Shown here piece by piece: positions 20,932 to 64,000 of a stretch of 64,000 nt of DNA. The notes below the pieces were generated by a model. It searched no databases, was not told where the DNA came from, and saw only the letters and a program-made list of their open reading frames with translations. The translations under genes were made by a program, and so were the position numbers. Each line of letters starts with the position of its first letter. The first letter of the stretch is position 1. The DNA is from a virus (taxonomy: Duplodnaviria; Heunggongvirae; Uroviricota; Caudoviricetes), in the IMG/VR virus record IMGVR_UViG_3300043467_001216; one strand, written 5' to 3'.

Positions 20932-22791
20932 ATGAGTAAAATTATTGGAATTGACTTAGGAACTACGAATTCGTGTGTTGCCGTAATGGAAGGGAATGAA
21001 CCTGTTGTAATCCCTAACAGTGAGGGAAAAAGAACAACACCATCAGTAGTTGGATTTGTTAATGAAGAAAGAAAAGTTGGTGACCCTGCTAAAAGACAAT
21101 CAGTTACTAACCCAACTAATACGGTTTATTCTGTTAAACGTTTTATGGGTTCATCATTTGATGAATGTGTGAATGAAACTACAAAAGTTCCATATTCTGT
21201 AATTAAAGGGAAAAACAATTCCCCAAGAGTAAAAATTGATAATAAAGAATTTTCACCACAAGAAATTTCAGCAACTATCTTACAAAAGATGAAAAAAACT
21301 GCGGAAGATTATTTGGGGTCAACTGTAACTGAAGCGGTTATTACTGTTCCTGCTTACTTTAATGACGCACAAAGACAAGCAACAAAAGAAGCTGGTGAAA
21401 TCGCAGGTTTAACTGTTAGACGTATTATCAACGAACCAACCGCTGCGGCATTGGCTTACGGTTTAGATAAGAAATCAAAAGACGCTGTTGTTGTTGTATT
21501 TGATTGCGGTGGGGGTACGCATGATGTTTCAATCCTTGAATTAGGTGACGGAGTATTTGAAGTAATGTCAACAGATGGGGACACTCACTTAGGTGGTGAT
21601 GACTTCGACCAAACAATTATTGATTACTTAGTAGGAATCTTCAAAGATGAAAATGGTATTGATGTTAGTAAAGACCCAATGGCGTTACAAAGATTAAAAG
21701 AGGCTGCTGAGAAAGCGAAAATTGAGTTATCATCAACCTCATCAACAGAAATTAACTTACCTTACTTAATGCCGGTTGATGGTGTTCCAAAACACTTAGT
21801 AACTTCTTTAAGTAAATCTAAATTCGAACAATTAGTTCAACCATTAGTTGACAGAACTATTAAACCGTGTGAAAGTGCGTTGAAAAGTGCGGGTATTAAA
21901 GTAACCGATATTGATGAAGTTATTTTAGTAGGTGGAACAACAAGAATTCCAGCAATTCAGGAGGCCGTTAAAAAATTCTTTGGTAAAGAACCTTCAAAAG
22001 GTGTTAACCCTGATGAGGTAGTTGCGTTAGGTGCGGCAATCCAAGGTGGTGTATTAGCTGGTGATGTAAAAGACGTGTTATTATTAGATGTTACCCCACT
22101 TTCATTAGGTATCGAAACTATGGGAGGTGTATTCACTAAATTAATTGAATCTAACACAACAATCCCAACTAAAAAATCACAAGTATTCTCTACGGCAGTT
22201 GATAACCAACCAAGTGTTGATATCCACGTATTACAAGGGGAAAGAGCGATGGCTAAGGACAACAAAACTATTGGTAAATTCCAATTGACTGATATTCCAC
22301 CATCACAAAGAGGTGTTCCGCAAATCGAAGTAACTTTTGATATTGACGCTAACGGTATCATTAATGTATCTGCGTTGGATAAAGGAACAAACAAAGTTCA
22401 ATCAATTAAAATTGAAGCGTCTTCAGGATTGTCTAAAGAAGAAATTGAAAGAATGAAATCTGAAGCTGAAGCAAATGCTGAAAACGATAACAAATTACGT
22501 GAGGAGGTTGAATTAATTAATAAAGCTGACAGTGTTGTGTTCCAATCTGAAAAATCAATTAAAGATTTGGAAGATAAAATCTCAGAAACTGATAAAACAG
22601 AATTAACTGAATTGGTTTCAAGTTTAAAAGAATCTGTTGAGAAACGAGAATTAGACGTTTTGGAGTCGAAAATTGAATCAGTCAATACTAAGTTCCAATC
22701 AGTATCTCAAAACTTGTATGATGAGTCAAATGTAACTGATGAGGTGAATGATAGTGATTTTTCTGATGTGGAATTTGACGAAGTGAAATAG
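20932..22791 (+). CDS. dnaK: Chaperone DnaK (Hsp70)
   Basis: [36 protein letters not shown]. Confidence 0.99.
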
Positions 22792-39822: not shown

Positions 39823-40371
39823 ATGAAAAAATTATTAATGTTTGGTTTGATTGGTTTATCGTTATTTAGTTGTGAAAATAATTCATCTAATTTAGATGTG
39901 TTTGATATGAAATGTATGAGTGATGGGGACACAATTGTAATACAAGGTTTGGGTGATTTCAATCAATTAGAGGTGTTAAGAATTAAAGACATTCTTGAAA
40001 GAAGATGTCACATCCCAACTAAAATTGGTGAACCACTCGAATTAACACCTGACAAATGTTATGAAGGTAAACTTAATATTGAAAAGTCTTTAATGGATTT
40101 TGACGATAACACAAATAAAATTTTGGTAACCAACACCAAGTGTTATTCAACGGTAGAAAAAAGACCTGTTGGTGGTGTTGGTGAATTGGGTGGTAATCTT
40201 ATTATAATTGGTAAAAACCCAGCTAACACAACTGAACGAGTATTAATACACGAAATGGGTCACTGTTATGGTCTTGACCACTGTGAAAACCCAACGTGTG
40301 TTATGTCACAAACTCGTGAAAATGATAACTTAAAATTAAATTTTTGTGACGATTGTCAAAAAAAGTTTTAA
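39823..40371 (+). CDS. Archaemetzincin-like Zn metalloprotease lipoprotein
   Basis: LFSC lipobox; HEMGHCYGLDHC..CVM...FC..C. Confidence 0.85.
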   Translation: MKKLLMFGLIGLSLFSCENNSSNLDVFDMKCMSDGDTIVIQGLGDFNQLEVLRIKDILERRCHIPTKIGEPLELTPDKCYEGKLNIEKSLMDFDDNTNKILVTNTKCYSTVEKRPVGGVGELGGNLIIIGKNPANTTERVLIHEMGHCYGLDHCENPTCVMSQTRENDNLKLNFCDDCQKKF

Positions 40372-40433
40372 AAAAACTTGACTACTAAAGAACTTTTACT
40401 AAATTTGTTGATATATATTAAAAGAATTAAAAA

Positions 40434-40553
40434 ATGAGAACAACTGAACAACATATTAAACAAGTAAGTCAATCGAAACAGATTCGCGTGTGTAGCGTAT
40501 CGTATCCGATGTGGTTTATCACGTCATATGGTTCAGAAAACATATTAAGTTAG
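40434..40553 (+). CDS. Leader peptide 1 (39 aa, MRTTEQHIKQVSQSKQIRVCSVSYPMWFITSYGSENILS)
   Basis: Codons 6-29 are all cognate to tRNAs of the downstream block; antiterminator near the stop. Confidence 0.8.
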   Translation: MRTTEQHIKQVSQSKQIRVCSVSYPMWFITSYGSENILS

Positions 40554-40612
40554 TTATAAACGTATAACAATTTGATAAGACCCCTGAACCAAAAGTTCGG
40601 GGGTTTTTTTTT
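40529..40612 (+). promoter_or_regulatory. Attenuator 1 (antiterminator/terminator)
   Basis: TGGTTCAG 40529-40536 complementary to CTGAACCA 40584-40591 in terminator AGACCCCTGAAC-CAAAA-GTTCGGGGG-T9. Confidence 0.8.
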
Positions 40613-40621
40613 GAAATAAAA

Positions 40622-40688
40622 TTTGGAAGTTACGAAATGAAATTCGTACCTTTGACAACAGAAAAGTTCATTGACATATTGGTTTAGA
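40622..40688 (+). promoter_or_regulatory. Bacteroidota-type promoter + boxA-like leader
   Basis: TTTG 40622, TACCTTTG 40647-40654, GTTCATTGACATATTGGTTTAGA 40666-40688. Confidence 0.75.
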
Positions 40689-40695
40689 TAAATAA

Positions 40696-40782
40696 GGAGA
40701 GTATCTGGCAGGATGAAGAGCTACTCTTGAAAAGTAGTAAGACGTGTAATGGGTCTTGTGGGTTCGAGTCCCACACTCTCCT
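40696..40782 (+). tRNA. tRNA-Ser(UGA)
   Basis: GGAGAGT/ACTCTCC acceptor, CTACT-CTTGAAA-AGTAG, long variable arm, T-arm. Confidence 0.85.
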
Positions 40783-40797
40783 CAAAAAAATAGAGTT

Positions 40798-40923
40798 ATG
40801 GTAAAAAGAGAAGTATTGACGGGAACATTTGAGTCAAGTAAAAGATTTTTAAGACAAGAGCCTAAAGAGGTTAAACTAAAATTCAGATTAATTAGAAAAT
40901 TAATCAAAAGGTTACATAAGTAA
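40798..40923 (+). CDS. Small basic protein (41 aa, MVKREVLTGTF...)
   Basis: Translated manually, between tRNAs. Confidence 0.5.
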   Translation: MVKREVLTGTFESSKRFLRQEPKEVKLKFRLIRKLIKRLHK

Positions 40924-40930
40924 CCATTAT

Positions 40931-41005
40931 TGTCCTGTAGGCGACGTTGGCAGAGCCACCACACTTTGAATGTGGATATCGCAGGTTCGATTCCTGCCGG
41001 GACAA
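40931..41005 (+). tRNA. tRNA-Gln(UUG)
   Basis: CCACA-CTTTGAA-TGTGG, full cloverleaf. Confidence 0.9.
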
Positions 41006-41088
41006 CAATAAAACAATTAGTTATTTCACGTTAAAAGATGGTCTTATAGGCTCACGAAGGCCGTGTCAACATCAATAACTAATAAATT

Positions 41089-41161
41089 GGGTCAGTTGCC
41101 AAGTTGGTCAAGGCACTTGTCTGAAGAACAAGCAATGGGGGTTCGATTCCCTCCTGTCCCA
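41089..41161 (+). tRNA. tRNA-Phe(GAA)
   Basis: CTTGT-CTGAAGA-ACAAG. Confidence 0.9.
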
Positions 41162-41241
41162 CGAGGTCCTGAATTAACAGGATACCCCCACCTCCGATAT
41201 GGCAGTCAGTCCGTTAAGCTGATGAAGTGGGGTTTTTATAT

Positions 41242-41316
41242 GGTGGCTATAGTGTTAGTGGTCGAGCACGTAAGTTTGTGGTTCTTATAGGTTGGGTTCG
41301 AATCCCAATAGTCACC
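41242..41316 (+). tRNA. tRNA-His(GUG)
   Basis: G-1:C73, TAAGT-TTGTGGT-TCTTA. Confidence 0.9.
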
Positions 41317-41572
41317 CAATTAATTTTTAAAACTTAGAAATCACAGAGACAGAAAAAACATTTATCAGTTCCGACTTAGAAAATGGTCGATGGTTATCTC
41401 CAATCGTAAGTGAAAGGAAATGGCAAGAAGAAAAATTAGTTGAGATATTCGGTCATTATCCGAACGCAAGTCCTAAATGGCTATATCTCAATGGTTTGAT
41501 ACACATTGCATTAGATTACATTAAACAAAATGAAGAAAAAATTTGACAAGTTGTAGGTTAAAAACCACAACT

Positions 41573-41770
41573 ATGAGTACAAACATCAACAGAGCAAAAC
41601 TGAACAAAGCACAAAATGGTAGAGAATACCGAAATAGATTGATAAATGACTTTTATCCAATTTATTGGGATGACGGAATTACTTTCTACGGAAACAAAAT
41701 GAGTTATCAAGTTAGAATGTATAAGACTTGGAAACACTACAGAAAAACTCAATATAAGGTAATAACCTAA
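41573..41770 (+). CDS. Small basic hypothetical protein
   Basis: MSTNINRAKL...YKTWKHYRKTQYK. Confidence 0.7.
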   Translation: MSTNINRAKLNKAQNGREYRNRLINDFYPIYWDDGITFYGNKMSYQVRMYKTWKHYRKTQYKVIT

Positions 41771-41860
41771 TAATGGGTGAATATTAGGTTAAAACCTAAT
41801 AATTGATGAATATAAGGCTGGAACCTTATAATGGTCGATTATAAGTCTCCAACCTTATTA
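41764..41860. repeat. 29-bp-period tandem palindromic repeat (3 units + partial)
   Basis: AACCTAATA-N9-TATTAGGTT-type units at 41764, 41793, 41822, 41851. Confidence 0.75.
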
Positions 41861-41863
41861 TTT

Positions 41864-41935
41864 GGTTCCTTGGTGTAATGGATAGCACCTATCGCTACGG
41901 ACGATAATGTCAAGGTTCGAGTCCTTGGGGGACTA
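41864..41935 (+). tRNA. tRNA-Arg(ACG)
   Basis: TATCG-CTACGGA-CGATA. Confidence 0.9.
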
Positions 41936-41975
41936 CGTATCCGATGTGTGATACCGAGCTAGGTCGGTGTAATTT

Positions 41976-42063
41976 GGAAGATTACCCAAGTTGGTGAAGG
42001 GGTCACATTGCTAACGTGATAGGTCTGAAATATGACGCGTGGGTTCGAGCCCCACATCTTCCG
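41976..42063 (+). tRNA. tRNA-Ser(GCU)
   Basis: TCACA-TTGCTAA-CGTGA, long variable arm. Confidence 0.9.
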
Positions 42064-42070
42064 CAGAAAC

Positions 42071-42140
42071 ACCGAGGCTTAGAGGAAAAGAACTATCTCT
42101 CATAAGGATGGTCAAGTGGGTTCGAAACCCATACTCGGTA
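42071..42140 (+). tRNA. Atypical tRNA(CAU) with shortened D region
   Basis: ACCGAG/CTCGGT, TATCT-CTCATAA-GGATG, GTGGG-TTCGAAA-CCCAT. Confidence 0.6.
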
Positions 42141-42184
42141 CAAAAAAATATTACAAAGGTATTGTGAGAATGGAAATGATTACT

Positions 42185-42230
42185 TATCTTTGTTAGACAA
42201 AAGAAAAGGTCTTTGACATATTGGTTTAGA
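42185..42230 (+). promoter_or_regulatory. Promoter + boxA-like leader
   Basis: TATCTTTG 42185-42192; GGTCTTTGACATATTGGTTTAGA 42208-42230. Confidence 0.75.
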
Positions 42231-42239
42231 AAGAAATAA

Positions 42240-42314
42240 CGGGGTGTAGTCTTGGGGTGAGACGCTTGGTTTGGGACCAAGAGGCGGCAGGTTCGACACC
42301 TGCCACCCCGACCA
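42240..42314 (+). tRNA. tRNA-Pro(UGG)
   Basis: CTTGG-TTTGGGA-CCAAG, encoded CCA. Confidence 0.92.
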
Positions 42315-42322
42315 AAAATTAA

Positions 42323-42396
42323 CGGAATGTAGCTCAGCTGGTAAGAGCATTCGCCTGATACGTGAAAGGTCGTAGGTTCGAACCCTACCATTCCGA
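42323..42396 (+). tRNA. tRNA-Ile(GAU)
   Basis: TTCGC-CTGATAC-GTGAA. Confidence 0.9.
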
Positions 42397-42522
42397 CTAC
42401 TTAATACCGAATCGGGTTTGTCAGTAAAGTGGGACCCTGCGACTATGACACTTAGGTGTAATTAGAGAAAATGACATTAAATAACCCACCACGGAAGGTG
42501 TTATCGGTGACCTTCTATTTTT

Positions 42523-42597
42523 GACTTCGTAGCTCAGTTGGTTTAGAGCAGTACACTTTTAATGTACGGGTCGTGAGTTCGATTCTCACCGGGGTCA
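42523..42597 (+). tRNA. tRNA-Lys(UUU)
   Basis: GTACA-CTTTTAA-TGTAC. Confidence 0.93.
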
Positions 42598-42605
42598 CAA
42601 TAATT

Positions 42606-42677
42606 AGCCCTTTAGCTTAAAGGTGAAGTACTTGTTTTACATACAAGATAGTGTAGGTTCGAGTCCTACAGGGGCTA
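42606..42677 (+). tRNA. tRNA-Val(UAC)
   Basis: CTTGT-TTTACAT-ACAAG. Confidence 0.9.
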
Positions 42678-42787
42678 CAAAATGTTAAGTTGGGTTTCCT
42701 AGTGGTAACGGTATGAACTATAGTAAGTAAGCCACAAGATTCTAGTAATAAGCGACAGATGGATTACTCGCGACTTAATATTTAATT

Positions 42788-42861
42788 GGACAGATGCCTG
42801 AGTGGTTTAAAGGGGTGGACTGCAAATCCACTATCCGGGGGTTCGAATCCCTCTCTGTCCT
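42788..42861 (+). tRNA. tRNA-Cys(GCA)
   Basis: GTGGA-CTGCAAA-TCCAC, U73. Confidence 0.93.
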
Positions 42862-42887
42862 CAATGAAATATATTGTTTCATTATTT

Positions 42888-42959
42888 GCATCATTGGTGT
42901 AATGGCTAGCATAAATGGTTCCAACCCATTTGGTCAGGGTTCGAGTCCTTGGTGGTGCG
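42888..42959 (+). tRNA. tRNA-Trp(CCA)
   Basis: AATGG-TTCCAAC-CCATT, G73. Confidence 0.88.
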
Positions 42960-43030
42960 CAAATATCGTAGGAGAGTTGATTAAGTTCAAACCCGCCGTT
43001 AAATTGTGAAGGACAATCTACGATATATTC

Positions 43031-43113
<83 letters not shown>

Positions 43114-43191
43114 CAATAAAAAAAAATTTAAACCAATTGTTGACACTTTTCAAAACTTTGATATATTTAATTAGTAAAGAATAACAAAATT

Positions 43192-43266
43192 ATGCAAAAC
43201 TTGAATAACATACTAATAGCGAGAACGGAGGGAGACAATCCTTGTGTATCGGAGAAGGTGTGTTAA
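43192..43266 (+). CDS. Leader peptide 2 (24 aa, MQNLNNILIARTEGDNPCVSEKVC)
   Basis: Codons 3-16 are all cognate to tRNAs of the downstream block; antiterminator just before the stop. Confidence 0.8.
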   Translation: MQNLNNILIARTEGDNPCVSEKVC

Positions 43267-43322
43267 TTCATTAAACATAAAATTTAAATGAAACCCTTCT
43301 CCAAAAGAGAGGGGTTTTTTTT
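43251..43322 (+). promoter_or_regulatory. Attenuator 2 (antiterminator/terminator)
   Basis: GGAGAAGG 43251-43258 complementary to CCTTCTCC 43295-43302 in terminator AAACCCTTCTC-CAAAA-GAGAGGGG-T8. Confidence 0.8.
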
Positions 43323-43332
43323 GTTACCTACG

Positions 43333-43404
43333 TTTGGTAAATCAAAATAAAAGCATTAGATTTGTCAGACAAAAGAAAAAAGTTCTTTGACATATTGGTT
43401 TAGA
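43333..43404 (+). promoter_or_regulatory. Promoter + boxA-like leader
   Basis: TTTG 43333, TAGATTTG 43357-43364, GTTCTTTGACATATTGGTTTAGA 43382-43404. Confidence 0.75.
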
Positions 43405-43411
43405 AGTTAAT

Positions 43412-43484
43412 ATCCTCGTGACGGAAAGGTATACGTCCTTGTCTTAGAAACAAGGTTTTGTGGGTTCGAATCCCACCGAGGATA
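43412..43484 (+). tRNA. tRNA-Leu(UAG), short variable region
   Basis: CTTGT-CTTAGAA-ACAAG; variable region only GTTTT. Confidence 0.85.
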
Positions 43485-43490
43485 CATAAT

Positions 43491-43564
43491 GGTTCAGTAG
43501 CTCAACAGGTGAGAGCAGGACGCTTATATCGTCAAGGTTGGGGGTTCAAATCCCTCCTGAACTA
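43491..43564 (+). tRNA. tRNA-Ile(UAU)
   Basis: GACG-CTTATAT-CGTC, A73. Confidence 0.8.
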
Positions 43565-43595
43565 CTGAAAAAATAAAAAATAAAAAATAAAAATT

Positions 43596-44111
43596 ATGTC
43601 AATATATAGTGTTGGTAGAAAAACTTACGGTTCTGAAAATATTAAAATTTACGAATGGGGTGAAGGTAAAACAATTAAAATAGGGTCTTTTTGTTCAATA
43701 GCAACAAATATTCAAATTTTTATTGGGGGTAATCATAGACCTGATTGGATTACAACATTCCCATTTCCACATTCGTTTAGTGTGGGTCATCCGTCATCTA
43801 ATGGTGATGTTATAATTGGTAATGATGTTTGGATTGGTGCTAATGCAACAATAATGTCAGGTGTTATTATTGGTGATGGTGCCGTTATTGCAAATAATTC
43901 TCACGTAGTAAAAAATGTTGAACCTTACACTATTGTTGGAGGTAATCCAGCTAAACCTATCCGTAAAAGATTTGATGATGAAACAATTCAAAAACTTTTA
44001 AAATTAAAATGGTGGGATTTTAATGATGATGAGATAAATAGAATAACCCCAATTTTATGTTCTAGTAATATAAACGAATTGTTTGAATTATATAAGGATA
44101 AATTACTTTAA
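43596..44111 (+). CDS. CatB/Vat-like hexapeptide-repeat acetyltransferase
   Basis: IGSFCSIA..GGNH, IGNDVWIG, IGDGAVIA, GGNPAK.IRKRF, WWD. Confidence 0.92.
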   Translation: MSIYSVGRKTYGSENIKIYEWGEGKTIKIGSFCSIATNIQIFIGGNHRPDWITTFPFPHSFSVGHPSSNGDVIIGNDVWIGANATIMSGVIIGDGAVIANNSHVVKNVEPYTIVGGNPAKPIRKRFDDETIQKLLKLKWWDFNDDEINRITPILCSSNINELFELYKDKLL

Positions 44112-44142
44112 AAAAAGTCTTGTATAATCAAAAGTAAATACT

Positions 44143-44193
44143 TAGATTTGTAAGACAAAAGAAAACAAAAGGTCTTTGACATATCGGAATAGA
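44143..44193 (+). promoter_or_regulatory. Promoter + boxA-like leader
   Basis: TAGATTTG 44143-44150; GGTCTTTGACATATCGGAATAGA 44171-44193. Confidence 0.75.
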
Positions 44194-44204
44194 AAAAATA
44201 AAAT

Positions 44205-44278
44205 GTCGCGTTAGACGAGTGGTTTAAGTCGTCACCCTTTCAAGGTGAAAATCACGGGTTCGAATCCCGTACGCGATA
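44205..44278 (+). tRNA. tRNA-Glu(UUC)
   Basis: TCACC-CTTTCAA-GGTGA. Confidence 0.92.
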
Positions 44279-44283
44279 CATAT

Positions 44284-44355
44284 CGCGGGATGGGGGAGTG
44301 GTCACCCCGCTGGGCTCATAACCCTGAGACACAGGTTCGAATCCTGTTCCCGCTA
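44284..44355 (+). tRNA. Initiator tRNA-fMet(CAU)
   Basis: C1 mismatch, GGG-CTCATAA-CCC. Confidence 0.88.
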
Positions 44356-44361
44356 CTAAAT

Positions 44362-44546
44362 AAAACAAGTGAGGACGGTGAGTAAACCCTCACTGTCTAT
44401 AAATCCCAAGACGGTACTTGATTCGCGGTAGTAAAGTTATTGAGGGTAGAATTACTATAAGTCTGGGATTAGCTACCCAAATGACGAAAATGTAATCACC
44501 GAGTAAAATTGGTTATGATGTGTAATGGTCACGAAAAACTTGTTTT
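44362..44546 (+). ncRNA. Unknown pseudoknotted structured RNA (~185 nt)
   Basis: Closing stem AAAACAAGT/ACTTGTTTT, several inner helices, GGGTAG/CTACCC pseudoknot. Confidence 0.6.
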
Positions 44547-44554
44547 TTTAAAAT

Positions 44555-44626
44555 GGTCTATTAGTGTAGTGGCTAACATACATCCCTGTCACGGATGTGC
44601 CGCGAGTTCGATTCTCGCATAGACCG
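44555..44626 (+). tRNA. tRNA-Asp(GUC)
   Basis: CATCC-CTGTCAC-GGATG, G73. Confidence 0.92.
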
Positions 44627-44847
44627 CGGGAGTGTACACAGTAGAGTTCTGTTTGAGAGAGGATTGTAACACGCACTTTAAAATGAGGTTACAAGGTATC
44701 AAACCGTTTATTCAGTTTTGACCGATAAAAACTGACGATTTTTTGAGAAATTTTAAGTCGATATAAAATTTCTTCGTGATATTAGTAGGTTTGGCCGCCT
44801 CATCACGTTAATGTGATGAAACATACCCAATGGAGTAATCACAACTT

Positions 44848-44920
44848 GCGGTAGTCGTATAATGGTTTATTATATAACCTTGCCAAGGTTAGGACGGAGG
44901 TTCGATTCCTCTCTACCGCT
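44848..44920 (+). tRNA. tRNA-Gly(GCC)
   Basis: TAACC-TTGCCAA-GGTTA, U73. Confidence 0.9.
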
Positions 44921-44970
44921 CAAAATAAAGGAGTTATAACCCTTTATATGGATGGTTCGAAACATCCGAT

Positions 44971-45042
44971 TGAGTATGGTGTACGGTGCACGGATGATGG
45001 TAATACGGATTCAAGATTAAGGTTCAATTCCTTATTATTCAG
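44971..45042 (+). pseudogene. Degenerate tRNA-like element (possibly Thr GGU)
   Basis: Acceptor, D and T arms present; anticodon stem does not pair. Confidence 0.45.
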
Positions 45043-45066
45043 CAAAGAGAAATAACACTCTTAATT

Positions 45067-45139
45067 GGTCTCTTAGTATAATGGCTTATTATTCTGGCTT
45101 TGTAACCCAGAGATAACGGTTCGAATCCGTTAGGGACCT
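45067..45139 (+). tRNA. tRNA-Thr(UGU)
   Basis: CTGGC-TTTGTAA-CCCAG. Confidence 0.88.
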
Positions 45140-45145
45140 CACAAT

Positions 45146-45217
45146 GGACTATTAGCTCAGCGGTAGAGCAATCGGCTGTTAACCGATAGGTCGTAGGTTC
45201 GAATCCTTCATGGTCCG
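45146..45217 (+). tRNA. tRNA-Asn(GUU)
   Basis: ATCGG-CTGTTAA-CCGAT, G73. Confidence 0.92.
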
Positions 45218-45276
45218 CAAAAAAGAGGAAAAACTTGTGTAGGTGCCTCAAGGGACTGCTGCCCTACTACACTCAA

Positions 45277-45356
45277 GGACCTGTGGTGAAATTGGTATAC
45301 ACGCTTTCTTTAAGCGGAAGTTCTTAGGATTGTGGGTTCGACTCCCACCAGGTTCA
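45277..45356 (+). tRNA. tRNA-Leu(UAA)
   Basis: CTTTC-TTTAAGC-GGAAG, extended variable arm. Confidence 0.88.
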
Positions 45357-45442
45357 CAATAGTGTCTCAGAACGCTCTGATAAGGTAACTTATTAACGAT
45401 GAGGTCTCGGTAGACAGAACGCGTCTGATTCTACCCAAATTA

Positions 45443-45515
45443 GCGGGTGTCGTATAGTGGATTATTATATTAGACTTCCAATTTAAAGACGAGGGTTCGA
45501 TTCCCTCCACCCGCT
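45443..45515 (+). tRNA. tRNA-Gly(UCC)
   Basis: TTAGA-CTTCCAA-TTTAA, U73. Confidence 0.9.
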
Positions 45516-45521
45516 CAAAAT

Positions 45522-45621
45522 AGACAACAAACTCTTCACCGAGGAAAACCTTTAAAACAGATTCACAACTATAAAGGTCGTTGAGTTGGGTAATAATAAA
45601 TGTGAGTATTACCTGTTGTCT
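45522..45621 (+). ncRNA. Unknown kissing-loop structured RNA (~100 nt)
   Basis: AGACAACA/TGTTGTCT closing stem; loops ATTCACA and TGTGAGT are complementary. Confidence 0.55.
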
Positions 45622-45630
45622 TTTTATTAT

Positions 45631-45706
45631 GGGGGTATCGTATAATGGCTTATTACGGTAGATTTGCAATTTACAAATCTGGTTTCGATTACCAGTACCT
45701 CCACCA
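45631..45706 (+). tRNA. tRNA-Ala(UGC)
   Basis: G3:U70, GTAGA-TTTGCAA-TTTAC, encoded CCA. Confidence 0.92.
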
Positions 45707-45712
45707 TATTTT

Positions 45713-45785
45713 GGTCCTATGATGTAACTGAATAGCATAAGCCCCTTCTAAGGGTTTCGTTGGGGTTTGAATCCCTGTAGGACTA
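45713..45785 (+). tRNA. tRNA-Arg(UCU)
   Basis: AGCCC-CTTCTAA-GGGTT. Confidence 0.88.
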
Positions 45786-46145
45786 CTCGTTGTGATGACG
45801 GATACGATGACAATTTGAACAAAGTAAATCACATTTATCAAGTTCTTTAATTATTTTATCCCAAGAACGTTTTCGTAAGTGAGTCCATTCAACATCTTTT
45901 TGTGATGGGTCACGATGATGAAAATCAAAAATAACATATGGTGATTTAGGGTATGAATTAGAACAATCTAAACATTTACCACCTTTATACTCAATAGCTT
46001 TTATTTTTGTTTTAATCCAACGTTCAGAACAATATTTATTGAAGCAGACTTTACATTTTGATTGTTTTGAAGGTCTATCGTTTTGTTGATAGAATTCAGT
46101 TACTGATTTTTCTTCATTACACGAAGTACAAATTTTAGTTTCCAT
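45783..46145 (-). CDS. Free-standing HNH homing-endonuclease-like protein (start METKIC)
   Basis: CxxC pairs, FDFHHRDP, CDLLCSNCHRIRH; TATTTAT upstream. Confidence 0.88.
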   Translation of the reverse strand: METKICTSCNEEKSVTEFYQQNDRPSKQSKCKVCFNKYCSERWIKTKIKAIEYKGGKCLDCSNSYPKSPYVIFDFHHRDPSQKDVEWTHLRKRSWDKIIKELDKCDLLCSNCHRIRHHNE

Positions 46146-46191
46146 AACAATAAATATGTGGATAGTATCAAAAAGACTAATTCCATAATCA

Positions 46192-46213
46192 GGGTTTGAA
46201 TCCCTGTGGGGCA
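46192..46213 (+). repeat. Duplicated tRNA 3' end (T-arm remnant)
   Basis: GGGTTTGAATCCCTGT identical to 45763-45778 of tRNA-Arg(UCU). Confidence 0.75.
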
Positions 46214-46217
46214 ACAA

Positions 46218-46419
46218 TGAGTTCGAGAAACTCAATGGGTTTTTAAGAGTCCCTCAAAACTTAACGGAACTGATACCATCCACGTTACGGGGTATTCATT
46301 GGGAATCGGAAGGAAGACTCTCCTATCCCCCAAGTAAGAGTTGATTTTTAAGCGGTAAGACGCGTTGGGTTTTGCATAAGAAAACTGTGAATATCTACTC
46401 TCCGTAATCTCAGGAGGGG
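46218..46419 (+). ncRNA. Unknown structured RNA (~200 nt) ending in a UAAUCUCA-loop hairpin
   Basis: Multiple hairpins; TAATCTCAG shared with the 3' end of the large ncRNA at 57914. Confidence 0.5.
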
Positions 46420-46421
46420 TT

Positions 46422-46528
46422 TATTTATTGACCGAGTGGTTTAAGGTTGAGCATACATAAAGTCTGGGAATGTGGTATGTATGATACCTATACACGGGGA
46501 CTCACAGGTTCGAATCCTGTATTGATAA
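46422..46528 (+). ncRNA. tRNA-like RNA with enlarged anticodon arm
   Basis: Canonical D and T arms; CATACATA/TATGTATG stem with 16-nt loop containing CTGGGAA. Confidence 0.6.
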
Positions 46529-46592
46529 CGTAATTCTAAACCAATATGTTTTTTTTTTCATTTAAGAATATTTATTAATAAACAATTTTAAG

Positions 46593-47861
46593 ATGAAAAA
46601 AACAATTCGTTTAAAAGAAACAGATTTAATAAATGTTGTTAATTCAATAATCAAAGAAAATAACTATCTTTTTGAAGATTCTGTTGAACAAATATTTGAC
46701 AATATTGATAGAAAATACGATTACAAAATATCAAATAACACTTGGTACGCTAAACTAAAAAATGGAACTGAATGGGTGGATTTATCAGGATATCCTAAAG
46801 CCATAACTATATTAAATAATAAAACAGGTATTAATGTTGTACCTGATGTTGAACCTACTCCAAAACCTATTCCTGACCCAAGACCTATTCCTGACCCAAA
46901 ACCAAAACCTATTCCTGAGCCAAAACCAAAACCAAAACCAAAACCTATTCCTGAGCCAAAACCAAAACCTGAAGATGACACTAAATTAACCCCACAACAA
47001 AAATTAATGAGAGCGAAATCTTGTGGGTTCAATTCTTGGATTGAATATAAATCAAGTGGGTTTAAATGTGGTGAAAAACCTGTTCCAAATCCAATTGATA
47101 AATCAGACACTATTGTTAGTAAAACAACTAATCCTAATTTTTTATCAAAAATAGTTAAAGTTGGTCCTAAAATTAGTACGGGTAAATCAACACCTGTCTT
47201 TGGTGCGGGTCAACGTGAATGTGCTCAGTTTGTTAACGATTTTGATACTAAACTTGAATCCGTTGGGGATGCTTGGTTAGCTCATAGTAAAGACCAAATA
47301 GGTCCACGTATTTTTACGTCATTTAGAGGTTTATCACCTGATGATGTTAAAAGAATCACTGATTTATGGGTTAAAATAGATAAATCAGGTGGTGCTAAAG
47401 GTAATTATATTAATGATGCTAGAAATTTAGTAAGAAGTTTGATTAAATCAGCACCGCCTAAATTACAACTTAATGATGTTGTTGGTATATACTACCCAAC
47501 TTCAGAAAATCACGAAAAAGCTTTTTATCTTGGGGGTAAAAACGCCATATCAGGTAATAAACCATATATTCTAAAAAATAATGGTAAATACGTTCCAGGT
47601 AATACTCTTAAATCAGGTAATGCTTGGGGTATGAATACTCACGTAGGTATAGTAGGTGCGATTAAAGATGGTGTTCCAATTATATTCCATAACGTTCACG
47701 GACAAGTTTATGCCGACCCTTATAATAGGTTATTAGATGGTGGTAAAATTGCTTGGGTTAGACGTGCGGGTAACTCATCACCAATAGCTTTAAATAAAGT
47801 TAAAGGTCCTGGGTCAATTACTGAAGAAATCACAAACAGTGGATTAAAAAAAAAACTTTAG
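46593..47861 (+). CDS. Putative virion amidase/peptidase (NlpC/CHAP-like) with Pro-Lys linker
   Basis: IRLKETDL leader; ECAQFVN...GDAW, THVGIV...IFHN. Confidence 0.7.
   Translation: MKKTIRLKETDLINVVNSIIKENNYLFEDSVEQIFDNIDRKYDYKISNNTWYAKLKNGTEWVDLSGYPKAITILNNKTGINVVPDVEPTPKPIPDPRPIPDPKPKPIPEPKPKPKPKPIPEPKPKPEDDTKLTPQQKLMRAKSCGFNSWIEYKSSGFKCGEKPVPNPIDKSDTIVSKTTNPNFLSKIVKVGPKISTGKSTPVFGAGQRECAQFVNDFDTKLESVGDAWLAHSKDQIGPRIFTSFRGLSPDDVKRITDLWVKIDKSGGAKGNYINDARNLVRSLIKSAPPKLQLNDVVGIYYPTSENHEKAFYLGGKNAISGNKPYILKNNGKYVPGNTLKSGNAWGMNTHVGIVGAIKDGVPIIFHNVHGQVYADPYNRLLDGGKIAWVRRAGNSSPIALNKVKGPGSITEEITNSGLKKKL
46853..46970 (+). repeat. Pro-rich coding tandem repeat (PKPIPE/D)
   Basis: CCAAAA and CCTATTCCTGA units. 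Confidence 0.85.
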
Positions 47862-56995: not shown

Positions 56996-57040
56996 TAAAT
57001 TTGTAAAACAAAATCGGAAAAGTCCGAAAGAGTTCTTTGA
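56996..57040 (+). promoter_or_regulatory. Promoter + boxA-like element for the large ncRNA
   Basis: TAAATTTG 56996-57003; GTTCTTTGA 57032-57040. Confidence 0.65.
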
Positions 57041-59130: not shown

Positions 59131-59519
59131 TGGTGGAGATAGAGGGACTCGAACCCTCGTGTCGTACATTTTAAGTATTAAGGACTACACGCTTAGGTCA
59201 ACATTTTCTAATGTTCCGAAAATAGTTATTTTTGTTCTTCACCATCGTAAAAATAACAACCAATGGACGATTCGATTTACGGACTCAATCGTTTTTCCGT
59301 CTTTTTAAAGACTTCTGTTCCTGGGTTATATGTCCATCGACCCGCGTCGTCGTAACTTCTTAAGCTACAACAACTTCTTCTTCACGGATTAATCCGATTT
59401 TAGAAAGAGTATTTAAAACGTTGCCGTTTGTACTTCGATACCATAGATTTAAGTGATAGATATCGTCTCACTGCGTGCCCCGAATAGTTAACCATGTCGG
59501 TCAATTCCAAGTTATCCCC
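59131..59519 (-). ncRNA. ssrA: tmRNA
   Basis: 5' GGGGAUA / UAUCUCC-ACCA 3' with G3:U70, T-arm GAGGG-UUCGAGU-CCCUC, internal tag ORF 59360-59425. Confidence 0.93.
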
Positions 59520-59616
59520 ATAAATCAAAGAACTTTGTTTGTTTCTCTATACAAATATAGAATAAATATTGATATATATCAAGAAGGTCTAATATTTATA
59601 ATAAAAGTTTTTAGAA

Positions 59617-62221: not shown

Positions 62222-64000
62222 TTATTCAACCCCTTTTTTCTTTCTACCTCTTTTAGGTTTTTCTTCAATTACATCAATTGTTTCAATCTTCACCTCTTTA
62301 TCCACCGCAATTAATTTATATGGTGTATTCTCAGATAAAGAACCTTTAAGAACTTCTTCAGATATAAAATCTTCAATTTTATCTTGTATTGCTCTTTTTA
62401 ATGGTCTAGCACCATATAATTCATCATAACCCACTTCTGAAATTAATTCAATTACTGAATCATCAAATGTGAAATCATATTTAAGACCTGACAATCTTGT
62501 TTTTAATCTATCAATTTCAAGATTAACAATTTTCTTAACGTTTTCTCTACCTAATGTTTTGAAGACAATCACCTCATCAATACGGTTTAAGAACTCAGGT
62601 GCGAAAAACTTTTGAAGTTCTTTTTTCAACATATCTCGTTTTTGTTCTTCTTCAACATAGGATTTTGCCGTTGTTCCAAATCCAATACCAGTTCCAAAGT
62701 CTTGTAGTTTTCTAACCCCAATATTAGATGTCATAATAATGATACAGTTTTTGAAGTTAATTTTTCTACCTAAACTATCTGTAAGATGTCCGTCATCCAA
62801 CACTTGAAGTAATGTTGAGAAAATGTCTTTATTCGCTTTTTCAACCTCATCAAATAATATAACAGAATATGGTTTGTTTTTAACTTGTTCAGTTAATTGA
62901 CCACCTTCTTCGTGACCAACATACCCCGGAGGTGAACCGATTAATCTTGAGATATTATGTTTCTCTTGATATTCAGACATATCAATTCTAATTAACGCAT
63001 CTTCAGTACCAAATATTTGTTTAGCCAATTGTTTTGCCAAGTGTGTTTTACCAATACCTGTAGAACCTAAGAATATAAACGAACCAATTGGTTTGTTAGG
63101 GTCTTTAATACCTAAACGATTACGTCTAATTGATTTAGCAATTTTTGAAACAGCTTCTTCTTGACCAATAACTTTTTCATTTAAGTTCCCCTCCATTTCA
63201 CTCAATGATTTTGTTTCATCAGCGTTTAATTTGGAGATTGGAATTTTTGTCATATTTGACACTACATCGTAAACAAGTTCGATATTAATTTCTTTACGTT
63301 GAGAGTTTAATGATTCTTCAAATTTCTTTTTCTCTTGTTCAAGTTTATTAAGTACTCGTTTTTCTTTATCACGTAAATTAGCAGCCTCTTCATAATCTTG
63401 TTTTTTAACAACTTCAAGTTTATCTAATTTAATTTGTTGAGCCTCAGCTTTTAAAGTTTCTATTTCTTCGGGGATTTTAACATCCACTTGACTACGAGCA
63501 CCTACCTCATCAATAATGTCAAATGCTTTATCAGGAAATTCTCTATCTGTAATATATCGTTCCGCTAAATCAACACATAGATTTAGTACTTCTTCTGAGT
63601 ATATAACTTTATGGAAATTTTCGTATCTATCTTTTGCGTTTTTAAGGATTTGTAATGTTTCATCTTTAGTTGCAGAATCAACTATCACTTTTTGGAAACG
63701 TCTTTCTAACGCTCCATCTTTCTCAAAGTTTTTACGGTATTCATCTAATGTTGTTGCTCCGACACATTGAATCTCACCTCTTGCTAATGCGGGTTTAAAG
63801 ATGTTAGACGCATCCATAGAACCTGATGAGTTACCAGCACCAACAATTGTGTGGATTTCATCAATGAATACGATGATATTGGAGTTGTTTTGTAATTCTT
63901 CGATAATTACCTTCATTCTCTCCTCAAACTGTCCTCTATATTTAGTGCCGGCAACAATTGATGTCATATCTAATGATACTATTCTTTTATCCATTAAATT
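62222..64000 (-). CDS. clpC: ClpC/ClpA-type AAA+ ATPase, 5'-partial
   Basis: GTKYRGQFEER, FIDEIH, UVR motif, GSTGIGKT, GSPPGYVG, LQVLDDG, GARPL. Confidence 0.95.
   Translation of the reverse strand, partial: NLMDKRIVSLDMTSIVAGTKYRGQFEERMKVIIEELQNNSNIIVFIDEIHTIVGAGNSSGSMDASNIFKPALARGEIQCVGATTLDEYRKNFEKDGALERRFQKVIVDSATKDETLQILKNAKDRYENFHKVIYSEEVLNLCVDLAERYITDREFPDKAFDIIDEVGARSQVDVKIPEEIETLKAEAQQIKLDKLEVVKKQDYEEAANLRDKEKRVLNKLEQEKKKFEESLNSQRKEINIELVYDVVSNMTKIPISKLNADETKSLSEMEGNLNEKVIGQEEAVSKIAKSIRRNRLGIKDPNKPIGSFIFLGSTGIGKTHLAKQLAKQIFGTEDALIRIDMSEYQEKHNISRLIGSPPGYVGHEEGGQLTEQVKNKPYSVILFDEVEKANKDIFSTLLQVLDDGHLTDSLGRKINFKNCIIIMTSNIGVRKLQDFGTGIGFGTTAKSYVEEEQKRDMLKKELQKFFAPEFLNRIDEVIVFKTLGRENVKKIVNLEIDRLKTRLSGLKYDFTFDDSVIELISEVGYDELYGARPLKRAIQDKIEDFISEEVLKGSLSENTPYKLIAVDKEVKIETIDVIEEKPKRGRKKKGVE

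Follow-up and report, generated by a model that had tools for sequence, protein, structure and literature searches.

A probable leader-peptide attenuator matched in its codons to the tRNA gene block that it precedes in a phage

The 64,000 nt stretch of DNA analysed here, referred to as the window, belongs to a 126-kb phage contig of 30.7% GC, and all 26 tRNA genes of the contig lie inside it. Block 1 contains tRNA genes for Ser-UGA, Gln, Phe, His, Arg-ACG, Ser-GCU, Pro, Ile-GAU, Lys, Val, Cys, Trp and Tyr; block 2 contains those for Leu-UAG, Ile-UAU, Glu, Met, Asp, Gly-GCC, Thr, Asn, Leu-UAA, Gly-UCC, Ala and Arg-UCU. Directly before each block stands a leader with a short ORF and, 23–26 nt after the ORF in both cases, a strong intrinsic terminator. 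The features of leader 2 and of the block that follows it are these:

43140–43169, plus strand: leader 2 promoter, with TTG(ACA) at 43140 and a −7 box, TAtaTTTA, at 43162–43169
43192–43266, plus strand: leader ORF 2 (MQNLNNILIARTEGDNPCVSEKVC), 24 codons
43198–43239, plus strand: sensor segment, codons 3–16, every codon read by a block-2 tRNA
43202–43270, plus strand: predicted protector ‘1:2’, 43202–43214 paired with 43257–43270 around an inner hairpin, from minimum free energy (MFE) folds
43251–43302, plus strand: predicted antiterminator ‘2:3’, GGAGAAGG (43251–43258) paired with CCTTCTCC (43295–43302), and TTCATT (43267–43272) with AATGAA (43287–43292)
43290–43322, plus strand: intrinsic terminator ‘3:4’, 12-bp stem, CAAAA loop and T8 tract, −16.8 kcal/mol
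43329–43336 (TACGTTTG) and 43357–43364 (TAGATTTG), plus strand: promoter-like TAnnTTTG boxes, read from the sequence
43382–43398, plus strand: boxA-like element GTTCTTTGACATATTGG, 14 nt before the first block-2 tRNA
43412–45786, plus strand: tRNA block 2, 12 tRNAs
43596–44111: acetyltransferase-like ORF inside block 2

A check of the sequence places the ATG of leader ORF 2 at 43192 and its stop codon at 43264–43266. The ORF lacks a Shine–Dalgarno sequence and has an A-rich 5′ UTR, a combination that is usual for Bacteroidota. The original prediction had listed codons 3–16 of this ORF as a run matching 10 of the 11 elongator tRNAs of block 2, and the listing proved exact. Strict wobble rules assign each of these codons to a block-2 tRNA, and the species sampled are Asn-GUU, Leu-UAA, Ile-UAU, Leu-UAG, Ala-UGC, Arg-UCU, Thr-UGU, Glu-UUC, Gly-UCC and Asp-GUC, which leaves Gly-GCC as the sole unsampled elongator. 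This is the longest run of block-2 codons in the six frames of the 64-kb window (14 codons; the runner-up has 11). In this phage's genes, block-2 codons make up 44.5% of all codons. With codon frequencies taken from 97 long ORFs of the same genome, the probability of a run of at least 14 within 23 codons is 6e-5; given block membership, coverage of 10 of the 11 tRNAs by 14 codons has P = 0.014. The leaders also use codons that are rare in phage genes (relative use: CGC 0.00, AGC 0.01, TCG 0.06, ACG 0.06, CTA 0.07).

One extension of the codon match is unsupported. Codon 17, CCT, had been proposed to be read by the GGG loop of a tRNA-like RNA at 46422, where neither ARAGORN nor Rfam calls a tRNA (46400–46530); at very relaxed settings, ARAGORN returns merely an intron-bearing Ile-UAU in this interval. 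The stretch 46400–46530 is tRNA-like in having a good T-arm (GGTTCGAATCC) and a D-arm-like start.

The −7 box of the leader 2 promoter fits the TAnnTTTG type of Bacteroidota at seven of eight positions, and the promoter as a whole matches the sigma-70 consensus at 11 of 12, with a predicted start near 43176. The block GATATATTTAAT is kept in all relatives, with variable flanks. Compared with shuffled sequences, the fold of the whole leader has z = −6.3. The protector (about −24 kcal/mol) is predicted to sequester the antiterminator strand when no ribosome is present, and the antiterminator is predicted at −15.8 kcal/mol, against −16.8 kcal/mol for the terminator. The pairing of GGAGAAGG, which ends 5 nt before the stop codon, with CCTTCTCC in the terminator had been proposed before, together with the bridging TTCATT/AATGAA helix; the coordinates of both are right, and the bridging helix is part of the predicted antiterminator. 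No Rfam family, and specifically no T-box fold, matches 43174–43322 at E ≤ 1.

We then folded the leader with a masked ribosome, extending from 15 nt upstream of the first A-site base to 14 nt downstream of it, and modelled the co-transcriptional situation by omitting the 3′ arm of the terminator. With no ribosome, the protector helix ties up the GGAGAAGG region. When the A site is on codons 3–16, and at no other position, the antiterminator forms (3′ arm omitted). It is lost when the A site is at codon 17 or later, the stop codon included, and the terminator forms from A-site codon 17 onward. Because the antiterminator is limited to A-site codons 3–16, the productive stall window is the matched codon run. 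Where relatives have a run longer by one codon, the same kind of folding puts the limit for the antiterminator at codon 17. In full-length masked folds, the terminator is thermodynamically preferred in nearly all states, with the antiterminator as the MFE structure for A-site codon 11; the switch must therefore be kinetic. The choice between folds is likewise kinetic in classical attenuators. In three relatives (L003, L004 and L018), the predicted ribosome-free fold is the antiterminator, unlike the protector predicted for the window.

The sister element ahead of block 1 has the following parts:

40399–40612, plus strand: leader 1 sister element, with promoter, ORF, antiterminator and terminator
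40399–40406, plus strand: leader 1 promoter, TAaaTTTG
40434–40553, plus strand: leader ORF 1, 39 codons
40529–40536 (UGGUUCAG) paired with 40584–40591 (CUGAACCA), plus strand: predicted leader 1 antiterminator, around a hairpin at 40543–40577
40577–40612, plus strand: leader 1 intrinsic terminator
40696–43114, plus strand: tRNA block 1, 13 tRNAs

Codons 6–25 and 27–29 of leader 1 are read by block-1 tRNAs, with all 13 represented. Its run of 20 is the longest run of block-1 codons in the six frames of the window (the runner-up has 14); with the codon usage of the phage, the probability of a run of at least 20 within 38 codons is 5e-7, and coverage of all 13 tRNAs has P = 0.004, block membership given. 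The leader 1 antiterminator (predicted at −20.3 kcal/mol) can form with the A site up to codon 28 but no longer from codons 29–30 on, and the matched run ends at codon 29. Rfam gave sub-threshold matches alone on leader 1, driven by the terminator. Taken jointly, the two leaders cover all 20 amino acids. We found no terminator between block 1 and leader 2, so that block-1 transcripts should run into leader 2. Within block 1, a weak Rfam tRNA match (23 bits, below threshold) lies at 42071–42140, where two relatives (L004 and L006) have a Met-CAU tRNA; this stretch may be the partner of the ATG codon 26 inside the leader 1 matched run.

Syntenic arrays were collected by motif and pattern scans of IMG/VR and of lake and river metagenomes. 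About 20 distinct metagenomic variants of leader 2 keep the ORF in frame, also across a 3-nt indel. Some changes affect the third codon position only (GGA/GGG/GGT, GAC/GAT, AAC/AAT and TTG/TTA). Replacements in the sensor segment are often radical (L>R, L>T, N>A/D) and stay mostly within the block-2 amino-acid set, the exception being N>I (ATT) in L029. The nine versions of leader 1 show the replacements Q<>P, I<>S and S>C, all three within the block-1 set, and synonymous changes at Val and Ser. Across these nine variants, the pairing of both the antiterminator and the terminator is 100% maintained, with three compensatory base pairs in the hairpin; a C>U change can still pair with G in the antiterminator as in the terminator. 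The leader 2 terminator is identical across 29 loci. In one subgroup, an A>T change in GGAGAAGG (AAG>TAG) creates both an earlier stop codon and a mismatch in the helix.

Among close relatives, the codons of the leaders did not covary with the tRNA genes present (GCA/GCG with Ala, GGT with Gly-GCC, TGT with Cys). GCG is retained without tRNA-Ala in L003 and L006, and TGT is retained in leader 1 of L007 without tRNA-Cys. We attribute this result to the closeness of the relatives, some of which keep codons for absent tRNAs.

One relative, L028, has lost the ORF and kept the terminator and the tRNAs. In this ENA marine metagenome contig (L028:1-700, as oriented), unrelated sequence replaces the leader-2 ORF up to about 25 nt before the terminator, as in a natural recombinant that has retained block 2 along with the terminator, promoter and boxA; it is a possible natural ‘leaderless’ control. 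In L012 and L020, the identical 28-nt terminator closes the tRNA array of another phage (at about 420 of the segment), and the N-terminus of the next gene resembles that of the window ORF at 46593–47861; the leader 2 terminator seems to move around as a module. Different protein genes are inserted among relatives between tRNA-Tyr and leader 2, which makes the position immediately ahead of the leader 2 promoter a hotspot for insertion:

L001:2434-3100: inserted methyltransferase-like ORF
L004:11988-12450: inserted GatB/YqeY-like ORF, also present in L006

A megablast search of 40000–46500 against isolate phages returned nothing beyond one 41-nt tRNA match, and a search for the locus by its upstream 182-aa metzincin-like ORF gave one close relative and no more. 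A search of metatranscriptome runs found small word shares in freshwater, riverine and marine RNA runs. Elsewhere in the window, the phage encodes a DnaK homologue (20932–22791), 60–65% identical to its counterparts in huge uncultured phages, as well as an FtsH-like ATP-dependent protease (62222–63994, minus strand); a putative tmRNA at about 59525 (minus strand) came from the initial reading of the sequence. DnaK, the FtsH-like protease, the putative tmRNA and the tRNAs would make up an unusually complete translation and proteostasis kit.

The stretch between the leader 2 terminator and block 2 carries a further element. A 17-nt boxA-like sequence, GTTCWTTGACATATTGG, occurs in four copies:

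40666–40682: boxA-like element ahead of block 1
42208–42224: boxA-like element inside block 1
43382–43398: boxA-like element ahead of block 2
44171–44187: boxA-like element inside block 2

It stands 14–18 nt ahead of the first tRNA in each block, and every tRNA sub-block has the order TAnnTTTG promoter, GTTCWTTGACATATTGG, tRNAs. Weaker copies lie at 57032 and 59517–59533 (minus strand). The identical 17-mer is widespread in Bacteroidota genomes and is found in the 16S–23S spacer of rRNA operons of Pedobacter, Flavihumibacter and Niabella. It is in this spacer that rRNA operons carry boxA. As GTTCWTTGACATATTGG is identical to the Bacteroidota rRNA spacer element, the host is very probably a member of Bacteroidota. 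Placed downstream of the attenuator, GTTCWTTGACATATTGG looks like a borrowed rRNA boxA antitermination signal. TTGACATATTGG had been considered as a sigma-70 −35/−10 promoter; this assignment was dropped in favour of TAnnTTTG promoters and a transcribed boxA.

The boxes at 43329–43336 and 43357–43364 stand between the leader 2 terminator and the boxA and tRNAs, and TAnnTTTG boxes follow the terminator of leader 1 too. The two boxes after the leader 2 terminator would provide an attenuator-independent route into block 2. Because there are promoter boxes between terminator and boxA, and promoters inside the blocks, read-through should not be required for tRNA expression here; in the window, the leader promoter is not the sole promoter on which the tRNA genes could depend.

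The same arrangement was looked for in other phages, and over 115 IMG/VR loci were reached through the boxA-like motif. The survey set consisted of the collected motif sites directly before tRNAs that have a short ORF (22–51 codons) and a terminator upstream; 55 such sites gave 22 non-redundant leader peptides that have no sequence likeness to one another. An MK- start is found in 15 of the 22. When the leaders of 20 informative pairs were each compared with their own downstream block by binomial tests, the Fisher-combined p was 2e-12, and in permutations of leaders and blocks over these pairs, none of 20,000 reached the observed match. Sampling of blocks by leaders is near-complete (13/13, 10/10, 11/11, 7/7 and 8/8). 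The first 18 residues of the L102 leader, for example, consist of just K, T, Y, Q, P, E and G, and the array behind it encodes Pro, Gln, Tyr, Glu, Lys, Gly and Thr tRNAs; the L042 leader samples 10 of 10 downstream tRNAs, and the 47 residues of the L034 leader, which has 22 tRNAs downstream, contain all 20 amino acids. The match is also positional, the share of cognate codons being 0.60 before the last eight codons vs 0.40 within them (p = 3.5e-5). In most leaders, a partner of the terminator 5′ arm lies 1–26 nt before the stop codon, and the energies of these partners are below those of shuffled sequences (mean z = −2.2, p = 1e-5).

The leaders are biased in their codons as well. For U34 tRNAs, G-ending codons make up 41% in leaders vs 17% in long ORFs (p = 3e-14); for G34 tRNAs, T-ending codons make up 85% vs 74% (p = 0.003). 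These two shifts run in opposite GC directions, and so neither composition nor stem stability explains the bias towards wobble-read codons; tuning for sensitivity, as judged from these codon statistics, does explain it.

TAnnTTTG boxes downstream of the terminator are absent in several other members of the family. In L132, L035, L040, L053, L036 and L102, the terminator is 2–15 nt from boxA, so that the leader promoter is the only visible promoter in those six loci; on this layout, they are attenuators in the strict sense. Judged by the shared predicted features of the surveyed loci, the leader design is widespread among phage tRNA arrays.

We consider it quite probable that leader 2 is a transcription attenuator of the trp/ilv type that acts through the ribosome, with sensing codons matched to the downstream tRNA genes. 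Transcription would begin near 43176 and a ribosome would load at 43192. Scarcity of any of the ten tRNA species, early in infection or because the host tRNA pool is degraded or cleaved, would then cause the ribosome to pause within codons 3–16. The paused ribosome would break the protector helix (43202–43214 with 43257–43270), freeing GGAGAAGG to pair with the 5′ arm of the terminator, and RNA polymerase would continue past boxA into block 2. If decoding is fast, a ribosome at codon 17 or later would cover GGAGAAGG, the terminator would form and transcription would stop at about 43322. The outcome would be negative feedback on the tRNA supply of the phage: the leader probably lets the phage raise the block tRNAs only when their codons are read slowly. 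Leader 1 would exert equivalent control over block 1. Wobble-read codons in the leaders should make pausing more sensitive to the tRNA level, and the attenuator may respond to the loss of host tRNAs. In this phage, it would add to basal transcription from the promoters after the terminator, and leader 2 would also gate read-through from block 1. Translation of the leader ORF, pausing and regulated read-through are what we infer from the sequence; what the analysis shows directly is the features of the sequence, with their statistics and conservation, and the alternative folds predicted for them. Of the original attenuator proposal, the codon match, the folds, their conservation and the recurrence of the design in 22 leaders speak in favour; the link between CCT and the tRNA-like RNA is unsupported, and the attenuator is not the sole route into block 2. 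Points that speak against the reading are the promoter boxes behind the terminator, the preference of full-length folds for the terminator, the ribosome-free antiterminator predicted in some relatives, leader codons that fail to follow losses of tRNA genes among close relatives, the lost ORF of L028 and the subgroup with A>T in GGAGAAGG.

Other explanations of leader 2 have to be weighed against this one. We regard it as unlikely that the leader senses translation with a different logic or output, such as transcript loss through Rho or RNase, early–late timing, or amino-acid starvation reported by uncharged tRNA. Ribosome pausing does report aminoacyl-tRNA and not the tRNA genes themselves, an antiterminator is predicted even without a ribosome in some relatives, and the adjacent downstream boxA suggests interplay with Nus-factor antitermination. 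Yet the productive-stall window coincides with the matched codons in both leaders, a sensor of tRNA concentration would require just such a bias towards wobble codons, and no sequence feature calls for Rho. It is quite unlikely that the ORF and terminator form an independent small gene or sRNA, with the terminator ending the block-1 operon and the likeness to the tRNA set devoid of regulatory meaning. In 20 independent leader–block pairs, the codons match the downstream block specifically, and the match is stronger upstream of the last eight codons; radical replacements are tolerated if they fall inside the amino-acid set of the block, and several loci have the terminator inside the operon leader with no second promoter. 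In favour of an independent gene, the unit has its own promoter and terminator with more promoters after it, L012 and L020 have the same terminator at the end of a tRNA array in an unrelated setting, and L028 has no ORF.

The position before tRNA-related genes and the presence of a terminator/antiterminator pair would also suit a T-box-like element, in which the leader RNA binds tRNAs directly and the codons act as specifier triplets without ribosomes. We hold this to be highly improbable: neither a T-box nor any other Rfam family matches 43174–43322, fourteen different ‘specifiers’ in series have no precedent, and the conserved frame, the in-frame indel, the third-position changes and the MK- starts (15 of 22) point to translation. 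The probability that chance or composition produced the codon match is practically negligible. Short runs of block-2 codons are indeed common in a phage in which these codons make up 44.5% of the total, but the run probabilities are 6e-5 and 5e-7, each leader immediately precedes its own block, codons avoided by phage genes occur in the leaders, and the permutation across 20 leaders (0 of 20,000) refutes this reading statistically.

The attenuator reading of leader 2 has counterparts among known systems. Multivalent attenuators of amino-acid operons in enterobacteria include those of ilvGMEDA (Ile/Leu/Val) and thr (Thr/Ile), alongside those of trp, his, pheA and leu, the last with the rare codon CUA. 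The ilv and thr leaders, with leu for its rare codons, appear to be the closest to leader 2. As in ilv and thr, there is a short leader ORF with codons tied to the operon product (here by sequence), an intrinsic terminator opposed to a mutually exclusive antiterminator (here predicted), and a block on the antiterminator by a ribosome at the end of the ORF (here in silico); as in the leu leader, poorly read codons would sharpen the response. Unlike in the enterobacterial attenuators, tRNA genes and not biosynthetic enzymes would be regulated, and one or two codons for each of 10–13 tRNAs (up to about 20 elsewhere) replace a run for one to three amino acids. The setting differs too, being phage-borne, in Bacteroidota and without a Shine–Dalgarno sequence, with an rRNA-type boxA following and, in this phage, extra promoters downstream.

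Like T-box riboswitches, leader 2 would sense the tRNA pool through a terminator and an antiterminator placed before translation-related genes. T-boxes, however, bind one uncharged tRNA directly, without a ribosome and by a conserved fold, whereas there is no Rfam match here and the ORF is conserved as coding sequence. With Nus-factor boxA antitermination in rRNA operons, the shared point is the 17-mer that follows the terminator, which has the same sequence as the boxA region of the Bacteroidota 16S–23S spacer; this separate downstream module accounts for neither the ORF nor the codon match nor the terminator. In drug-sensing leaders (ermC, cat, msrD, topAI), too, the RNA downstream is remodelled by a ribosome that has stalled in a short upstream ORF, but there stalling comes from drug and nascent peptide and not from tRNA supply, and codons are not matched to the product.

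The reason for, and the control of, phage tRNA arrays have been debated for decades. A full-text literature search turned up no earlier report of phage tRNA genes controlled by leader-peptide attenuation. We are fairly confident that leader 2 is a multi-tRNA-sensing leader-peptide attenuator, a classical mechanism in an apparently new use for tRNA genes. Roles proposed for phage tRNA arrays include compensation for codon usage, replacement of host tRNAs once their pool is degraded, and evasion of defences that cleave tRNA (for example PMC10264068, PMC11555353, PMC11464382). The codon content of leaders may offer an annotation rule for block boundaries in such arrays, and the leader element is a possible natural part for a multi-tRNA biosensor.

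If our reading is true, the tRNA supply of the phage would be regulated by demand, the principle of attenuation would extend from amino-acid enzymes to tRNAs themselves, and the leader sequence would predict which tRNAs are limiting in the infected cell. On balance, we also think it likely that phages of Bacteroidota run their tRNA arrays as self-tuning operons behind ‘sampler’ leaders, with about one wobble-biased codon for each tRNA. A shortage of any single tRNA, caused by codon demand, host breakdown or host anticodon nucleases, would then open the terminator, and in the window the two leaders would share out the 20 amino acids between them. If so, these phages would carry a built-in sensor of the tRNA pool and of defences that target tRNA.
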